The translations under genes and the position numbers were made by a program. Source: a virus (lineage: Duplodnaviria > Heunggongvirae > Uroviricota > Caudoviricetes). From it: a DNA stretch of 5,360 nt. Of the stretch, positions 1 through 5,310 are shown piece by piece; positions within the stretch are counted from its first letter, which is position 1, and every line of letters begins with the position of its first letter. The stretch lies in the IMG/VR virus record IMGVR_UViG_2706794677_000009; one strand, given 5' to 3'. Below the pieces are notes generated by a model. The model was not told where the DNA came from. It made no database searches and worked only from the letters and a program-made list of their open reading frames with translations.

Positions 1-709
1 GGTTTGGGCATGATACTGATGTAGTCACGCTTTATCGTTTTCACGAAGCTCTCTGCTATTCCGTTACTCTCCGGACTCCGCACCGCCGTGTTCTTCGGTT
101 CAAGTCCCAACATCCGGGCGAACTGGCGTGTTTCATTAGCCCGGTAGCATGAACCATTATCCGTCAGCCACTCCACTGGAGACGACGGAAGATCGTTGCC
201 GAAGCGGCGTTCCACCGCTCCCAGCATGACGTCCTGTACTGTTTCACTGTTGAAGCCGCCGGTAGTCACCGCCCAGTGCAGTGCCTCACGATCACAGCAG
301 TCCAGCGCGAACGTGACACGCAGTCTCTCTCCGTTATCACAGCAGAACTCGAACCCGTCAGAGCACCATCGCTGATTGCTTTCTTTCACGGCCACTCTGC
401 CTGTATGTGCCCGTTTCGATGGCGGTACAGCAGGTTTTCGCTCAAGCAACAGCGCATTCTGGCGCATGATCCGGTAAACACGTTTGGCATTGATCGCAGG
501 CATACCATCAAGTTCTGCCTGTCTGCGAAGCAGCGCCCATACCCGACGATAACCATACGTGGGCAGCTCTCCGATAACATGGTGTATACGGAGAAGCACA
601 TCCGTATCATCAGTGTGACGACTGCGGCGGCCATCCATCCAGTCATCGGTTCGTCTGAGAATGACGTGCAACTGCGCACGCGACACCCGGAGACAACGGC
701 TGACTAAGC

Positions 710-1457
<748 letters not shown>

Positions 1458-1515: not shown

Positions 1516-1671
1516 ACAATTGCGATCTTTTCCTGTGTGGTACGCCGTCTGCGTTTCTCCGGCCCTAAGACATCAATCATCTGTACTCCAATGACTAGTC
1601 TAAAAACTAGTATTAAGACTATCACTTATTTAAGTGATACTGGTTGTCTGGAGATTCAGGGGGCCAGTCTA
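1516..1671 (-). repeat. Truncated IS2 left end (terminal 156 bp including the inverted repeat and the first ~20 codons of insC); exact direct repeat of 1011..1166
   Basis: Base-by-base comparison of 1011..1166 with 1516..1671 shows identity over 156 bp. The flanking bases differ (1010 a vs 1515 c). Confidence 0.9.
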
Positions 1672-1791
1672 CGGACATTTTCTGCCTGTGGACCAGGAAA
1701 GTGCACGGGTGCTTTCCACTCCCATGAAGCCCGGCAATCCGCGCAGATACAGTAATAAACGAACTGACAGCAGTAAGATGGAGCGTTTCTT

Positions 1792-2049
1792 TTGAACAAC
1801 CAGACAATGACTTTTACCCCTGAACAATTGCGTAAACACGCGCAGGAAATGCTGCGTCATGCTGAACAACTCGAAAAAACGGGCATAACAAAAGACGCTA
1901 TCCGTAAAGATATGGTACCCGCGCTTCGGGAACTGATGCAGGCGAAGCATCGCGCACAGAAAGCAGTAGATGAGCTGGTGGACTGTGTGGCAGAGCTGGA
2001 AACCAGAGTCGGAAAGTTTGAAAAACTGGTGCAGGAGGTGCTGCGCTGA
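1792..2049 (+). CDS. Hypothetical small phage protein (nin-region type, predicted helical/coiled-coil); start is TTG 1792 or ATG 1807
   Basis: Open frame of 85 codons with a GGAG Shine-Dalgarno-like motif (1780..1783) about 8 nt before TTG 1792. Its stop TGA (2047..2049) overlaps the ATG of the next gene (TGATG). Charged, heptad-like sequence. No family recognised. Confidence 0.55.
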   Translation: MNNQTMTFTPEQLRKHAQEMLRHAEQLEKTGITKDAIRKDMVPALRELMQAKHRAQKAVDELVDCVAELETRVGKFEKLVQEVLR

Positions 2050-2423
2050 TGCGCCATGAGTTTATTTTACCTTATCCGCCGACGGTGAATACTTACTGGC
2101 GACGTCGTGACAACACATATTTTGTATCAAAAGCCGGTGAGCGTTATCGCCGGGATGTGGCGCTTATTGTCCGTCAGCAGCGACTGAAATTAAGCCTGTC
2201 CGGAAGACTGGCGATAAAGATTATTGCAGAGCCACCGGATAAGCGCCGTCGTGACCTGGACAATATCCTGAAAGCACCACTGGATGCACTGACACATGCG
2301 GGAGTGTTAATGGACGATGAGCAGTTTGATGAAATCAATATCGTTCGTGGTCAGCCAGTATCTGGTGGACGTCTGGGGGTGAAGATTTACCCCATAATGC
2401 ATGAAGAGCAGGTCAAAAAATGA
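2049..2423 (+). CDS. rusA: RusA-family Holliday junction resolvase (endodeoxyribonuclease RusA)
   Basis: 124 aa. N-terminal LPYPPTVNTYW and the RRRDLDN acidic motif with C-terminal GGRLGVKIY follow the RusA pattern (E. coli RusA has LPWPPSNNRYY ... RRRDLDN). Sits directly upstream of Q, as in lambdoid nin regions. Confidence 0.85.
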   Translation: MRHEFILPYPPTVNTYWRRRDNTYFVSKAGERYRRDVALIVRQQRLKLSLSGRLAIKIIAEPPDKRRRDLDNILKAPLDALTHAGVLMDDEQFDEINIVRGQPVSGGRLGVKIYPIMHEEQVKK

Positions 2424-3274
2424 AACTGGAAGATTTACCGAAATACTACTCCCCAAAATCCCCTTGCCTGACCGATGCATCGGCCTCAACGTCAAAAGAT
2501 GCGCTGAGTATCACTGATGTGATGGCCGCGCAGGGCATGACACAGAATCGGGCTGAGATGGGGTTTTCTGCGTTCCTGGGGAAAATGGGCATCAGTATGA
2601 ATGACAGGGCGCGGGCAACAGAATTACTGGCAGATTATGCACTCAGTCGGTGCGATCGTGTGGCGGCGTTGAGAAAACTTCCGGCAGAAATAAAACCGGT
2701 AGTGATGCGCATTATGGCTTCGTACGCTTTTGAGGATTATGCCCGCAGCGCAGCGAGTAAAAAGCAGTGCCCTTGTTGCTATGGGGAAAAATTTATTGAA
2801 AGCGTAGTTTTTACAAACAAGGTCCAGTATCCGGATGGTAAGCCGCCGGTATGGGCAAAGTGTACGAAAGGTGTGTATCCGTCTTACTGGGAAGAATGGA
2901 AAAAAGTCAGGGAGGTGGTAAAAGTTGCCTGTCCGGAGTGTGGCGGAAAGGGTGAGGTTTCCACCGCCTGTAAGGATTGCCGTGGGCGTGGTGTCGCCAT
3001 TCATCGTGAAGAGTCGGTAAAACGTGGTATGCCTGTTATCAGAGACTGCCAGCGTTGTGGTGGTCGTGGCTATGAAAGACTACCATCAACGGAGGCATTT
3101 AATGCTATATGCGAGGTGACAAACCAGATAACACGCGCGTCATGGGAAAAAACAGTTAAGAAATTCTATGATGCGCTGGTGACTCGGTTTGATATTGAAG
3201 AAGCATGGGCTGAGCGGCAGTTAAAAAAGGTAACTAGGTTGATTTTTCCGGAATCTGTGGTAAATTCGTCATAA
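2420..3274 (+). CDS. Q: Late-gene antitermination protein Q (phage 82 / Qin QuuQ-like family) with a cysteine-rich zinc-binding region
   Basis: 284 aa. The N-terminus (LEDLPKYYSPKSPCLTDASASTSKDALSITDVMAAQGM) resembles my recollection of Qin-prophage QuuQ. Three CxxCxGxG repeats lie at aa 171-178, 184-191 and 210-217. The position (after rusA, before the terminator and tRNAs) is canonical for Q. ATGA start/stop overlap with rusA. Confidence 0.75.
   Translation: MKLEDLPKYYSPKSPCLTDASASTSKDALSITDVMAAQGMTQNRAEMGFSAFLGKMGISMNDRARATELLADYALSRCDRVAALRKLPAEIKPVVMRIMASYAFEDYARSAASKKQCPCCYGEKFIESVVFTNKVQYPDGKPPVWAKCTKGVYPSYWEEWKKVREVVKVACPECGGKGEVSTACKDCRGRGVAIHREESVKRGMPVIRDCQRCGGRGYERLPSTEAFNAICEVTNQITRASWEKTVKKFYDALVTRFDIEEAWAERQLKKVTRLIFPESVVNSS
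3239..3266 (+). promoter_or_regulatory. Candidate late promoter pR' (sigma70-like: -35 TTGATT, 16-bp spacer, extended -10 TGgTAAATT), overlapping the last codons of Q
   Basis: TTGATT at 3239..3244 and TAAATT at 3261..3266 preceded by TG at 3258..3259. A terminator ~45 nt downstream fits the short pR'-tR' unit of lambdoid phages. Hexamer matches are imperfect. Confidence 0.4.
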
Positions 3275-3313
3275 CTATGGGCGTTTTATGCCTGACGTTA
3301 GAAGAGTTTCTAC

Positions 3314-3340
3314 AACCCGCCGCCGAGCGGGTTTTTTATT
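3314..3340 (+). terminator. Intrinsic terminator (candidate tR'): 6-7 bp GC stem ACCCGC/GCGGGT, 6-nt loop, then TTTTTTATT
   Basis: 3315..3320 pairs with 3327..3332, followed by the T-run 3332..3340. Confidence 0.6.
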
Positions 3341-3367
3341 GCGGAATTAATTACGGACCGTTATTAT
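3339..3367 (+). promoter_or_regulatory. Possible promoter for the tRNA genes (-35 TTGCGG, 17-bp spacer, -10 TATTAT)
   Basis: TTGCGG at 3339..3344 and TATTAT at 3362..3367. The -10 ends 10 nt before the mature tRNA 5' end at 3377. The -35 is weak. Confidence 0.3.
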
Positions 3368-3376
3368 TCTGCTCCC

Positions 3377-3452
3377 GGCCCTTTAGCTCAGTGGTGAGAG
3401 CGAGCGACTCATAATCGCCAGGTCGCTGGTTCAAATCCAGCAAGGGCCACCA
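3377..3452 (+). tRNA. tRNA with anticodon CAU, most likely tRNA-Ile2 (lysidine type, decodes AUA); elongator tRNA-Met not excluded
   Basis: Manually folded 76-nt cloverleaf: acceptor GGCCCTT/AAGGGCC, D-arm GCTC-AGTGGTGA-GAGC, anticodon loop CTCATAA, T-arm GCTGG-TTCAAAT-CCAGC, discriminator A, encoded CCA. Close to my recollection of E. coli ileX and of the ileZ gene of Stx phages. Confidence 0.88.
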
Positions 3453-3552
3453 TCACAAACCGCCATTAGCTTATCAGGAAGAGCAGACGACACGATAACA
3501 GGGTTGTTGGTGCGGGGGCGGGTCCCCGATGGCGGTCCATTATCGGTATTCA

Positions 3553-3629
3553 GCGTTGTTAGCTCAGCCGGACAGAGCAATTGCCTTCTAAGCAATCGGT
3601 CACTGGTTCGAATCCAGTACAGCGCGCCA
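3553..3629 (+). tRNA. tRNA-Arg, anticodon UCU (decodes AGA/AGG)
   Basis: Manually folded 77-nt cloverleaf: acceptor GCGTTGT/ACAGCGC (one G-U pair), D-arm GCTC...GAGC, anticodon stem ATTGC/GCAAT with loop CTTCTAA, T-arm ACTGG-TTCGAAT-CCAGT, discriminator G, encoded CCA. Confidence 0.9.
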
Positions 3630-3739
3630 TATTCATTCTTCCAGATTCCTTCCGGCAGAGCCTTATACTGAAATATACCTGGCTCAGGATATTGTTGAAA
3701 ATATTTTATGTTTGTCAAAAATAAAAGTTCTGTTAAGTA

Positions 3740-4093
3740 TTGATTGAGTGTTTGTTATACGGTCTAATGGTTTTTTCAGCATTAAATATTTATCATTCAT
3801 ATGGTGTGGGTAGAGTGAATATTGATGAGGCGTCGGGGTGTTTCATCCTTAGGCAGCGTATTGATATAGTCAATGCAGCACGAGCAAAGGCCTTCAGCCG
3901 TTTGACAGTTTTGTTCTGTACTCCTGATCGTCTTTCGGGAAGAGACGTTATTATTCTGAATAGTGATGCTATACAGAGGGTTTGCGATGAGTTCATGGTT
4001 GCTAATTCAGAATTATTTGCTCTTGTTCAGGAGTACAACAGAATAGCCAGGACCTGTGGTATGGATGAACTTCGGATTACTCATCTGGGGTAG
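3740..4093 (+). CDS. Hypothetical protein (orphan cargo gene, no family recognised); start codon uncertain (TTG 3740, ATG 3767, or an internal GTG)
   Basis: 354-nt open frame in AT-rich DNA directly downstream of the tRNAs. No convincing Shine-Dalgarno or own promoter found. Uses AGA and AUA codons. Stop TAG at 4091..4093. Confidence 0.45.
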   Translation: MIECLLYGLMVFSALNIYHSYGVGRVNIDEASGCFILRQRIDIVNAARAKAFSRLTVLFCTPDRLSGRDVIILNSDAIQRVCDEFMVANSELFALVQEYNRIARTCGMDELRITHLG

Positions 4094-4484
4094 ATACATA
4101 TCTGGATTATCACCTGTTACGGTAAAAAGTGATTGCTTACTGTTTTTGTGAATGGCATTGCAGCAGCCGGATAATGTCAGTGCTGGCTGACGGTGTGCTG
4201 GTGGCGGGTGTGGTGGTTGTTGCTTTCCCGTTGCTGAAAAAGAAAACGCCAGACTGTTAGCCGGGTATCAGTTAGCGGGAGAAATTTTTAAATACTTCAC
4301 AATTCAGGCGGTTGACTGTTGTCTGGTTTGCGGGGAGTTTGTTAAAAGAAACTGGCATGGTGAATCCCCCTGTGCGGAGGGGCAATCAGCGAGTAGGTAT
4401 ATGGGATAATCGCGGATTCAGGTGCTGGTACTGAATTCACCGGGAGGCACCCGGCACCATGCAATGGCACATAGCGCCACTCTC

Positions 4485-4520
4485 CAGCCCCTCTCCGGAG
4501 GGGCTGTTTATATTGATTTT
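4485..4520 (+). terminator. Strong intrinsic terminator: perfect 9-bp GC-rich stem CAGCCCCTC/GAGGGGCTG, 4-nt loop, then TTTATATTGATTTT
   Basis: 4485..4493 is the exact reverse complement of 4498..4506, followed by a T-rich tract on the plus strand only. It lies 21 bp from the stop of the convergent minus-strand gene. Confidence 0.65.
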
Positions 4521-4538
4521 GTCAGATGTGAGTAAACT

Positions 4539-4571
4539 CCTTATGGACTTTGTTGTTTTAGTCCATAAGGA
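4539..4571. repeat. Perfect 11-bp inverted repeat (TCCTTATGGAC ... GTCCATAAGGA) with a 11-nt T-rich spacer, spanning the stop codon of the minus-strand gene
   Basis: 4539..4549 is the exact reverse complement of 4561..4571. Confidence 0.8.
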
Positions 4572-4876
4572 CATATTTGCAGAGTGCAACGGTTATTAAA
4601 GCATTCATTCAATACGTTATCTGTATTTGTAGGGCATTCCTGGCTATTTTTGATTGAATTCCAGAATGTTTTATTGAATGGTACTACGTTGTAAATGGTT
4701 ACAGGTAGCACTTTGTTATTGAGCATGATGCCTGTGTGAGTCAGTGTAAATATACTTTCAGGAGGTAAGAAAGCATCCGATTGATACCAGATTATTAATT
4801 TTATTTTACTCCATATGACTGAAAAAGATATTCCGCATGATGGCTGGATAACTGTATCAATCACAATCCACTTCAT
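4541..4876 (-). CDS. Hypothetical 111-aa protein, Trp/aromatic-rich N-terminal part and C-terminal C-x11-C-x4-C-x4-C cluster; orphan cargo gene
   Basis: ATG at 4876 preceded by AAGGAAA about 6 nt upstream (good Shine-Dalgarno). Stop TAA at 4541..4543. AT-rich codon usage. Promoter-like hexamers lie upstream. No family recognised. Confidence 0.62.
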
Positions 4877-4916
4877 TTAGTTTCCTTGTTTATGCCTTGC
4901 TGGTGATGTTCTGAAA

Positions 4917-4943
4917 AGTATAAATGATATTTTTGAATGTAAA
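4917..4943 (-). promoter_or_regulatory. Candidate sigma70 promoter for the minus-strand gene (-35 TTTACA, 15-bp spacer, -10 TATACT)
   Basis: Minus strand reads TTTACA-ttcaaaaatatcatt-TATACT, about 40 nt upstream of the ATG at 4876. The spacer is shorter than optimal. Confidence 0.35.
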
Positions 4944-5136
4944 CCATAGAGCAGAATTATTTTTCTGATGTTGTTTATTGTTTATTTAAATGCAGGGTGG
5001 TTTATATCTCGTCTTGTAGTTTATCCATGCATATCTGCTTGATAATCAGGTTTTTATTTAAGGTATGGTTTTGTGTTTTTTCTGTATTACATGTCAGGTA
5101 TTTTAAAGAATTATTTTTCAGATGGTGGAAAGAACC

Positions 5137-5310
5137 ATGGCATTTAAACACTATGATGTTGTCAGGGCGGCGCCGCCGTCAGATCTTGCGGAAAAGCTGA
5201 CACATAAACTGAAAGAGGGCTGGCAGCCGTTTGGTAGTCCGGTGGCCATAACCCCTTATACCCTGAGGTGTACTGGCAATAGCGGACACTACCATTTGTT
5301 CTTTTTTTAA
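5137..5310 (+). CDS. Small hypothetical protein (57 aa from ATG 5137); resembles, from memory only, the small conserved prophage ORFs (DUF1737-like) that precede nanS-p esterase genes in lambdoid prophages
   Basis: ATG 5137 preceded by GGTGGAAAG (Shine-Dalgarno-like) and has E. coli-like codon usage. The track's 5122 start lacks a ribosome-binding site. Stop at 5308..5310. The family assignment is an unverified recollection. Confidence 0.5.
   Translation: MAFKHYDVVRAAPPSDLAEKLTHKLKEGWQPFGSPVAITPYTLRCTGNSGHYHLFFF

Follow-up and report, generated by a model that had tools for sequence, protein, structure and literature searches.

Does the slot that carries stxAB in Shiga-toxin (Stx) phages hold an accessory system of its own in this prophage, or a set of separable parts? 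We addressed this question in IMG/VR record IMGVR_UViG_2706794677_000009, a 5,360-nucleotide stretch of Caudoviricetes DNA that is referred to as the window and numbered from its first letter. An earlier note on the window had read positions 3640-5136 as horizontally acquired, AT-rich cargo downstream of the Q-linked transfer RNAs (tRNAs), in which two unrecognised orphan genes might make up an undescribed system. We find that the interval is very probably a mosaic moron region of a lambdoid prophage late operon with three separately exchangeable modules. The cargo region would be bounded by the Q antiterminator and tRNAs at one end and by the lysis cassette at the other. Module 1 would consist of orf92 and a DUF3927 mini-membrane protein on the late-operon strand. 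Module 2 would be the gene of an STnc100 small RNA (sRNA; EcOnc27/sRNA103 family, related to PasD) with a promoter-like block and an intrinsic terminator, and module 3 an iraL cassette, AT-rich and lying on the opposite strand, with a sigma-70 promoter of its own.

The composition pattern, the two open reading frames (ORFs) and the terminator are real, as judged from guanine-cytosine (GC) values, the ORF list and a hairpin scan. GC content is 39.5% over 3640-5136, compared with 49.8% in the phage genes of 1671-3639 (binomial z = -7.9), lowest in the minus-strand gene (34.5%) and in the 260 bp upstream of it (29.6% at 4877-5136), and 50.0% in the block between the ORFs (4094-4515), which ends in a 9-pair hairpin (7 G-C) at 4485-4506 with a T-rich tail. 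The ORFs run from 3740 to 4093 on the plus strand (117 amino acids, TTG start) and from 4541 to 4876 on the minus strand (111 amino acids). The Q-linked tRNAs stand upstream, and in Stx1 and Stx2 phages stxAB lies between the same tRNAs and the RNA element that we found at 4326-4515; the assignment to the stx-equivalent slot is thus borne out, as is the view that the DNA is horizontally acquired, AT-rich cargo of a lambdoid prophage, located in its Q-to-lysis interval. The middle block was also described as non-coding, which it is not, since it holds a DUF3927 coding sequence and an sRNA gene. The features of the cargo region are as follows.

3630-3814, plus strand: leader of the left cargo module, AT-rich (32% GC) and including the 5' extension of ORF 3740-4093
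3815-4093, plus strand: orf92, 92 amino acids, GTG start, phrog_2873; the longest ORF here is 3740-4093
4129-4260, plus strand: small DUF3927 ORF (PF13064), 43 amino acids, with a hydrophobic stretch and a KKK tail
4319-4348, plus strand: predicted STnc100 promoter, with -35 TTGTCT at 4319-4324, an 18-nt spacer and extended -10 TGtTAAAAG at 4340-4348
about 4355-4513, plus strand: STnc100-family sRNA (Rfam match 4326-4515)
4485-4506, plus strand: STnc100 intrinsic terminator hairpin, with its T-rich tail reaching about 4513 (terminator scan)
4510-5135, minus strand: iraL cassette, about 32% GC, inserted after the STnc100 terminator and ahead of the DUF1737/esterase ATG
4538-4571, minus strand: hairpin of 10-11 bp that spans the stop codon of iraL and lacks a clear U tract (read from the sequence)
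4541-4876, minus strand: iraL coding sequence, 111 amino acids, RssB anti-adaptor of the IraM/IraL family
4909, minus strand: iraL transcription start, with -10 TATACT at 4922-4917
4923-5135: intergenic DNA of about 30% GC, the upstream regulatory DNA of iraL

By sequence comparison, the minus-strand ORF is iraL, a characterised gene and not an orphan. Its product matches NCBIfam NF007393 (anti-adapter protein IraM) over residues 1-110 with 162 bits against a cutoff of 121, is identical at 110 of 111 residues to IraL of CFT073 (C_RS06710, the gene named iraL/c1429 in PMC12890032) and is 61% identical over 107 residues to IraM of K-12. The match to the IraM structure in the PDB (8TWD) has an E value of 6e-31, with the N-terminal 78 residues aligning to the solved chain. 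In CFT073, IraL was described as an IraM homologue (58.9% identical) and shown experimentally to be an RssB anti-adaptor that stabilises RpoS; the 5' end of iraL messenger RNA (mRNA) was mapped there by 5'-RACE (rapid amplification of cDNA ends), and the region upstream was found to be conserved in iraL strains (Hryckowian et al. 2014, PMC4045071). Later papers report that c1429 expression is increased in a fur mutant and at 37 degrees C. From position 4909 on the minus strand, the window matches exactly the first 30 of the 32 nt in the RACE sequence. The CFT073 potB prophage has the order Q, tRNAs, DUF3927, RNA element, opposite-strand IraM-family gene, DUF1737 and holin, and its iraL island shares its neighbours (Q, tRNAs, DUF3927, STnc100, iraL, DUF1737) with the window; the two differ in that three tRNAs and an IS200 follow Q in CFT073, whereas the window has two tRNAs, an IS2 upstream and an IS600 downstream. 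K-12 IraM (b1160, beside the e14 prophage) is a homologous anti-adaptor that differs from IraL in genomic context and regulation, and IraL has four extra C-terminal residues.

With 99% identity to the CFT073 protein, this allele would be expected to bind RssB and to stabilise RpoS. IraL would sequester RssB so that ClpXP spares RpoS, and the growing lysogen would contain more RpoS. Lysogenic conversion by iraL is experimental in CFT073 and would apply here by homology. The induced temperate phages vB_EcoS-813R8 and vB_EcoS-640R1 also carry iraL, indicating that it is a lysogenic-conversion gene of still-inducible phages. Of the features that define a moron, iraL has an atypical composition (about 32% GC) and its own promoter (mapped start); as to a terminator of its own, the plus-strand module ends at the STnc100 terminator and iraL has only the hairpin without a U tract. 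Two observations concern the DNA upstream of iraL. Its -35 region (4930-4946, minus strand) contains GGTTTA, a perfect half PhoP box, next to a second half-site that is poor by eye; PhoP regulates iraM in K-12. The AT-rich region between iraL and DUF1737 contains a 21-nt direct repeat at 4953-4973 and 5107-5127 (AGAATTATTTTTCTGATGTTG and AGAATTATTTTTCAGATGGTG, 90% identical), the second copy of which directly precedes the DUF1737 ribosome-binding site.

The sRNA gene in the middle block belongs to the STnc100 family. The Rfam model RF02076 matches at full length (model positions 1-206) with 132.4 bits against a gathering score of 47, and published STnc_100 quantitative PCR primers match exactly at 4356-4375 and 4429-4448. 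We aligned 13 copies, taken from Stx1, Stx2a and Stx2c phages, Shigella phage 75/02, mEp460, PhiR12_2 and a Shiga toxin-producing E. coli prophage with four copies, and used 11 of them in a folding test. The promoter-like block, TTG(Y)CT, 18 nt and TGtTAAAA, is invariant or nearly so in the 13 copies. From its position at 4319-4348, a transcription start is predicted at about 4355, the first base of the closing helix, so the first ~28 positions of the Rfam model probably cover promoter DNA and not RNA. A published 11-nt complementarity between STnc100 and stxB, at model positions 5-15, would then fall upstream of the transcript. The fold consists of an 8-bp closing helix (P1), two invariant hairpins (P2 and P4), a covarying hairpin (P3, with covariation in 6 of its 8 pairs), a variable linker of ~35 nt and the terminator, whose stem is retained through compensatory changes in other copies. 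Over the 11 copies, pairing holds in 98.9% of cells, with compensatory changes at 10 pairs; none of 500 shuffles was as good, and shifted registers pair at 37-53%.

STnc100 RNAs have already been described at this position in prophages of enterohaemorrhagic E. coli (EHEC; PMC7873438, PMC12711010, bioRxiv 10.64898/2026.05.13.724894). EDL933 has eleven copies, one of them confirmed by Northern blot; the copy after stx2B is the Hfq-bound EcOnc27/sRNA103, overexpression of which alters fimZ and espA levels; and for paralogues in EDL933 and Sakai, which lie between the late promoter and the lysis genes, there is evidence from Northern blots and Hfq cross-linking (Hfq-CRAC). By analogy with these paralogues, a discrete Hfq-bound RNA would also be made from the window. 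The window gene shares the fold of RF02076, EcOnc27/sRNA103 and EcOnc06 and, like them, is located after the late promoter or cargo and ahead of the lysis genes. It is the short hypervariable-insert variant, common to mEp460 and Shigella phage 75/02, and its 3' linker variant is that of PhiR12_2 and some Stx phages. The 2026 preprint relates STnc100 to PasD of enteropathogenic E. coli; our assignment uses the RF02076 model alone and does not set the window gene apart from PasD. Whole-sequence duplexes between STnc100 and the start regions of iraL, DUF3927, orf92 and DUF1737 had energies no better than those of dinucleotide shuffles, which is only a weak negative because the duplex model is crude.

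Several further observations were made on STnc100 loci. The prophage of E. coli STEC1585 has four full-length copies (3575-3787, 5547-5742, 5806-6005 and 6067-6256 in our locus L005), of which one follows a TolA-like gene and three stand in tandem, ~60 nt apart, just upstream of a nanS-p esterase. RefSeq and GenBank place coding sequences or pseudogenes for a 'hypothetical protein' antisense to STnc100, corresponding to window 4342-4470 on the minus strand (instances at L001 7154-7279, L004 33269-33394 and L015 1517-1840); these ORFs are probably spurious, read from a conserved structured RNA gene. Another prophage RNA, sRNA-17 of mEp460-type prophages (PMC7719688), was considered and set aside, its sequence and primers being absent from the window.

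In the left module, the plus-strand ORF was correctly taken for a real gene; its 5' end was probably set 25 codons too far upstream. Sequence comparison indicates a gene under purifying selection that most likely spans 3815-4093. Against a 56%-identical homologue, the ratio of nonsynonymous to synonymous substitution rates (dN/dS) is 0.27 over codons 25-117 (dS ~1.1), with an excess of third-position changes, and 0.69 over codons 1-24. Distant relatives (32-64% identity, 91-95 amino acids) start at query residues 26-41, mostly 26-30. These starts, together with the weak constraint on codons 1-24, make the frame from the GTG at 3815 to 4093 the likely gene, which we call orf92. Weak promoter-like sites at 3695-3722, in the leader, are no commoner than in shuffles.

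Nor is orf92 an unrecognised orphan, as it matches phrog_2873, a PHROG family to which no function is assigned, with 234 bits. When 1.84 billion representative proteins were searched exhaustively without a profile, only 20 relatives were returned, and a scan for relatives across species genomes returned E. coli only. No match was found in Pfam or NCBIfam, Pfam scans of all family members were also empty, and so was the PDB profile search. An AlphaFold2 model built with the family alignment has a mean predicted local distance difference test score (pLDDT) of 89 and shows a helical hairpin made of a long helix, a beta-hairpin and a second long helix, for which Foldseek against the PDB and BFVD gave only generic coiled-coil or prefoldin-like matches (E >0.09). 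RefSeq/PGAP leaves the gene unannotated in CFT073, in E. coli 042 and in 23 sampled full-length copies.

We also examined the neighbours of orf92 relatives. Those at 64% and 38% identity occupy the Q-to-holin slot in the order (AraC-like), orf92, TerB-like, DUF3927, holin, and the 56%-identical relative has an AraC-like gene before it and three tandem STnc100 copies after it. More distant relatives adjoin a GerE-type regulator, a PapB/usher fimbrial operon or bfp-like pilus genes, indicating that the family is not confined to prophage late regions. In metagenome contig L024 and locus L011, homologues at 32-33% identity stand directly after bfp-like type IV pilus genes and beside a PapB/usher operon. 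Together, these contexts suggest a small protein that belongs to horizontally acquired islands and is often encoded beside regulators. Of the moron features, only the composition was found for orf92. Its companion, the DUF3927 ORF, matches PF13064 with 95.6 bits against a cutoff of 25, as well as phrog_1470, and corresponds to RefSeq WP_000562553.1; phage records call it 'TciB-like', and nothing relevant was found in the literature on TciB and DUF3927.

Do these parts move together? The Q-to-lysis slot accepts insertions at two points, which flank STnc100; STnc100 itself is conserved backbone and not cargo. PhiR12_2 shows the slot without cargo, with Q, STnc100 and the esterase in turn. In Stx phages, stxAB follows the tRNAs, STnc100 begins 45-75 nt after stxB, and next comes the nanS-p/YjhS esterase, whose N-terminus is a DUF1737 domain. 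The window has the same slot without the toxin: its left insertion point holds orf92 and DUF3927, and the second, from the STnc100 terminator to the DUF1737 ATG, holds the iraL cassette, where other phages have AsxR or AgvB. Homology to esterase-bearing phages ends at 4505-4509 and resumes at 5136-5137, placing the cassette edges at 4510 and 5136. Phage mEp460 is 99.3% identical over window 3640-4463 and then diverges inside STnc100; it has orf92, DUF3927 and the 5' part of STnc100, and iraL is absent. Conversely, vB_EcoS-813R8 and vB_EcoS-640R1 match the window from 4297 on and carry iraL without orf92. Among 5,426 complete E. coli genomes, the orf92/DUF3927 segment is present in 1,183, the iraL segment in 1,428 and the whole stretch in 863. 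The two convergent ORFs are therefore frequent neighbours and not a unit, and the linked pair that the earlier note proposed comes apart in many genomes and phages, with recombination joints in or next to the STnc100 gene. The conserved STnc100 core may itself serve as such a joint. In a lysogen, its terminator would stop plus-strand cargo transcription before the lysis genes, an insulator role suggested by its place and conservation; after induction, Q-modified polymerase would be expected to read through it.

The nearest known arrangement is that of the EHEC dyads EcOnc27/AsxR and EcOnc06/AgvB, which have the same plus-strand STnc100 member and the same convergent layout right after its terminator. 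According to a review (PMC7873438, covering Tree et al. 2014), sRNAs of this kind are paired convergently with AsxR or AgvB, between the late promoter and the lysis genes, in at least eight Sakai prophages. We confirmed this layout in two phage loci (L018 and L012), where AsxR or AgvB directly follows STnc100. Up to an E value of 1, the window has no match to AsxR or AgvB, so the dyad as described is not present here. The convergent partner is instead the protein-coding iraL cassette, and the separate minus-strand terminator of the dyads is missing; for this reason, iraL transcripts could run antisense into STnc100. Other phages have a GCCCGCGC hairpin and an A/T run at the place corresponding to window 4510-4571, which is without a separate minus-strand terminator.

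We weighed these results against other explanations of the island. That the two convergent ORFs are one undescribed accessory system for toxicity, defence or anti-defence, acquired as a unit, is highly improbable: iraL has an established function unrelated to phage defence, each gene occurs without the other in phages and in genomes, the cassette junctions fall between them, and distant orf92 homologues adjoin TerB-like and DUF3927 genes or regulators, not iraL. What speaks for a single system is the AT-rich composition of both genes in a known cargo slot, their contiguity in those 863 complete genomes and the failure of profile and structure searches to give orf92 a function. A PADLOC search returned no match for orf92, DUF3927 or IraL, and for DUF1737 only chance-level AbiEii matches (E >0.02). 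The proposal of a new system is already largely refuted, and its parts are already known. A different doubt is whether ORF 3740-4093 is only a chance frame in an AT-rich spacer, which would leave the left half of the island non-coding. Its omission by RefSeq in CFT073, 042 and the 23 sampled copies, the lack of a Pfam or NCBIfam match, a TTG or GTG start with a weak Shine-Dalgarno sequence and the weakly constrained first 24 codons would all fit a chance frame, but the low dN/dS over codons 25-117 with its excess of third-position changes would not. Nor would homologues of the same length at 32-64% identity that start at residues 26-41, a PHROG family match with a confident structural model, or the order orf92, TerB-like, DUF3927, holin kept in relatives at 38% and 64% identity, and we consider a chance frame quite improbable.

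It is possible, though the less probable view, that the main action of the STnc100 block is in cis, where it would terminate or insulate transcription and serve as a recombination joint travelling with the cargo, and not that of a trans-acting RNA. In every case, STnc100 directly follows variable cargo, be it stxAB, a TolA-like gene, or AraC-like plus orf92; four copies, three of them in tandem, are found in a single prophage, 5' insert and 3' linker variants assort independently, with mEp460 homology breaking inside the gene, and the predicted duplexes with neighbouring mRNA start regions do no better than shuffles. However, the promoter-like block is invariant, as are P2 and P4 down to their loops, a degree of conservation beyond what termination calls for; Hfq binding and discrete Northern bands have been reported for paralogues, and sRNA103 overexpression alters fimZ and espA levels. 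Cis and trans roles are also not mutually exclusive. A further proposal, which is unlikely, has two halves: STnc100 and iraL may be a working variant of the EHEC dyad, in which the mRNA of an RpoS anti-adaptor and an Hfq sRNA would limit each other; and, separately, orf92 may partner the TerB-like and DUF3927 genes next to the holin or prophage AraC-like regulators. Some points weigh against the three-module mosaic that we favour. The case for an STnc100 promoter and for insulation by its terminator comes from conservation and position, and that for expression and binding of this copy from comparison with CFT073 and the paralogues. IraL of the window differs from that of CFT073 at one residue (S74 versus L), and two single-nucleotide differences from CFT073 lie near the iraL start site and in the 5' untranslated region. 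A convincing iraL terminator was not found, the hairpin at 4538-4571, which the terminator scan did not report, being the only candidate for the 3' end. The literature that we consulted gave no trans targets of STnc100, and module 1, with no function assigned to orf92 or DUF3927, is described rather than explained.

The flanking DNA shows where the island sits. The window is part of a lambdoid prophage broken up by insertion sequences (IS), and the prophage is of the CFT073 potB/mEp460-like type. It contains the following features outside the cargo region.

about 1-1167, minus strand: IS2
1168-1515: 3' fragment (348 bp) of an IS21-family istB gene
1516-1672: second copy of the IS2 end, an exact 157-nt repeat (1011-1167 = 1516-1672)
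1792-2049, plus strand: C-terminal remnant of a larger phage protein (ORF85), matching the last third only of phrog_2565
2049-2423, plus strand: RusA
2420-3274, plus strand: Q antiterminator (PF03589)
3240-3267: putative weak promoter-like TTGATT-16-TAAATT, read by eye (8/12) and under the scan threshold
3314-3340, plus strand: terminator-like hairpin and T run just after Q, at the tR' position (terminator scan)
3377-3452, plus strand: tRNA with CAT anticodon (Met according to ARAGORN; tRNA-Ile in RefSeq for CFT073 and 042)
3553-3629, plus strand: tRNA-Arg (TCT)
5137-5266, plus strand: DUF1737 ORF (PF08410, 57 bits), a homologue of the N-terminal part of phage nanS-p/YjhS esterases

The ORF85 match covers positions 121-203 of the 204 in the phrog_2565 profile, and CFT073 has a 349-amino-acid DUF968 gene before rusA at this position; ORF85 is probably the remnant of a gene truncated by IS2 insertion. 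Sub-threshold Rfam matches to Trp_leader at 3234-3340 (25.7 bits against 41) and to plastid and Yar families were taken as chance. At the other end, the DUF1737 ORF matches phrog_143, a 634-amino-acid family, and has 84-89% DNA identity to the N-terminal part of nanS-p/YjhS esterase genes. IS600 occupies the end of the window and cuts this gene at ~5266, where the CFT073 alignment breaks. In CFT073 and 042, DUF1737 is already a short pseudogene, and the window copy is cut further by IS600. From the tRNA-Arg to the IS600 junction, the DNA is ~99% identical to CFT073 and to E. coli 042; the junction itself is shared by none of the top-matching complete E. coli genomes. The prophage is thus decaying, with IS2 and the istB fragment upstream and IS600 in the DUF1737 gene downstream, and its iraL and STnc100 genes are intact. 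The IS load (IS2, the istB fragment and IS600) suggests a Shigella-like or otherwise IS-rich E. coli host.

What the island contains is thus already described: the observations in the earlier note were mostly right and their interpretation mostly wrong. The remaining novelty is modest and lies in the unannotated small gene orf92 and in the replacement of the anti-sRNA half of a known dyad by iraL, with no clear terminator. The main value of the analysis is annotation, and current understanding is unchanged by it. The orf92 gene has been overlooked in every RefSeq E. coli copy sampled, even though its segment is present in 1,183 of the 5,426 complete genomes, and the ORF antisense to STnc100 is probably mis-annotated. 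The locus corresponds to the iraL island already characterised as raising RpoS during growth of uropathogenic E. coli and Shigella, and adjoining it is an sRNA from the prophage family that is found after stx genes as well.

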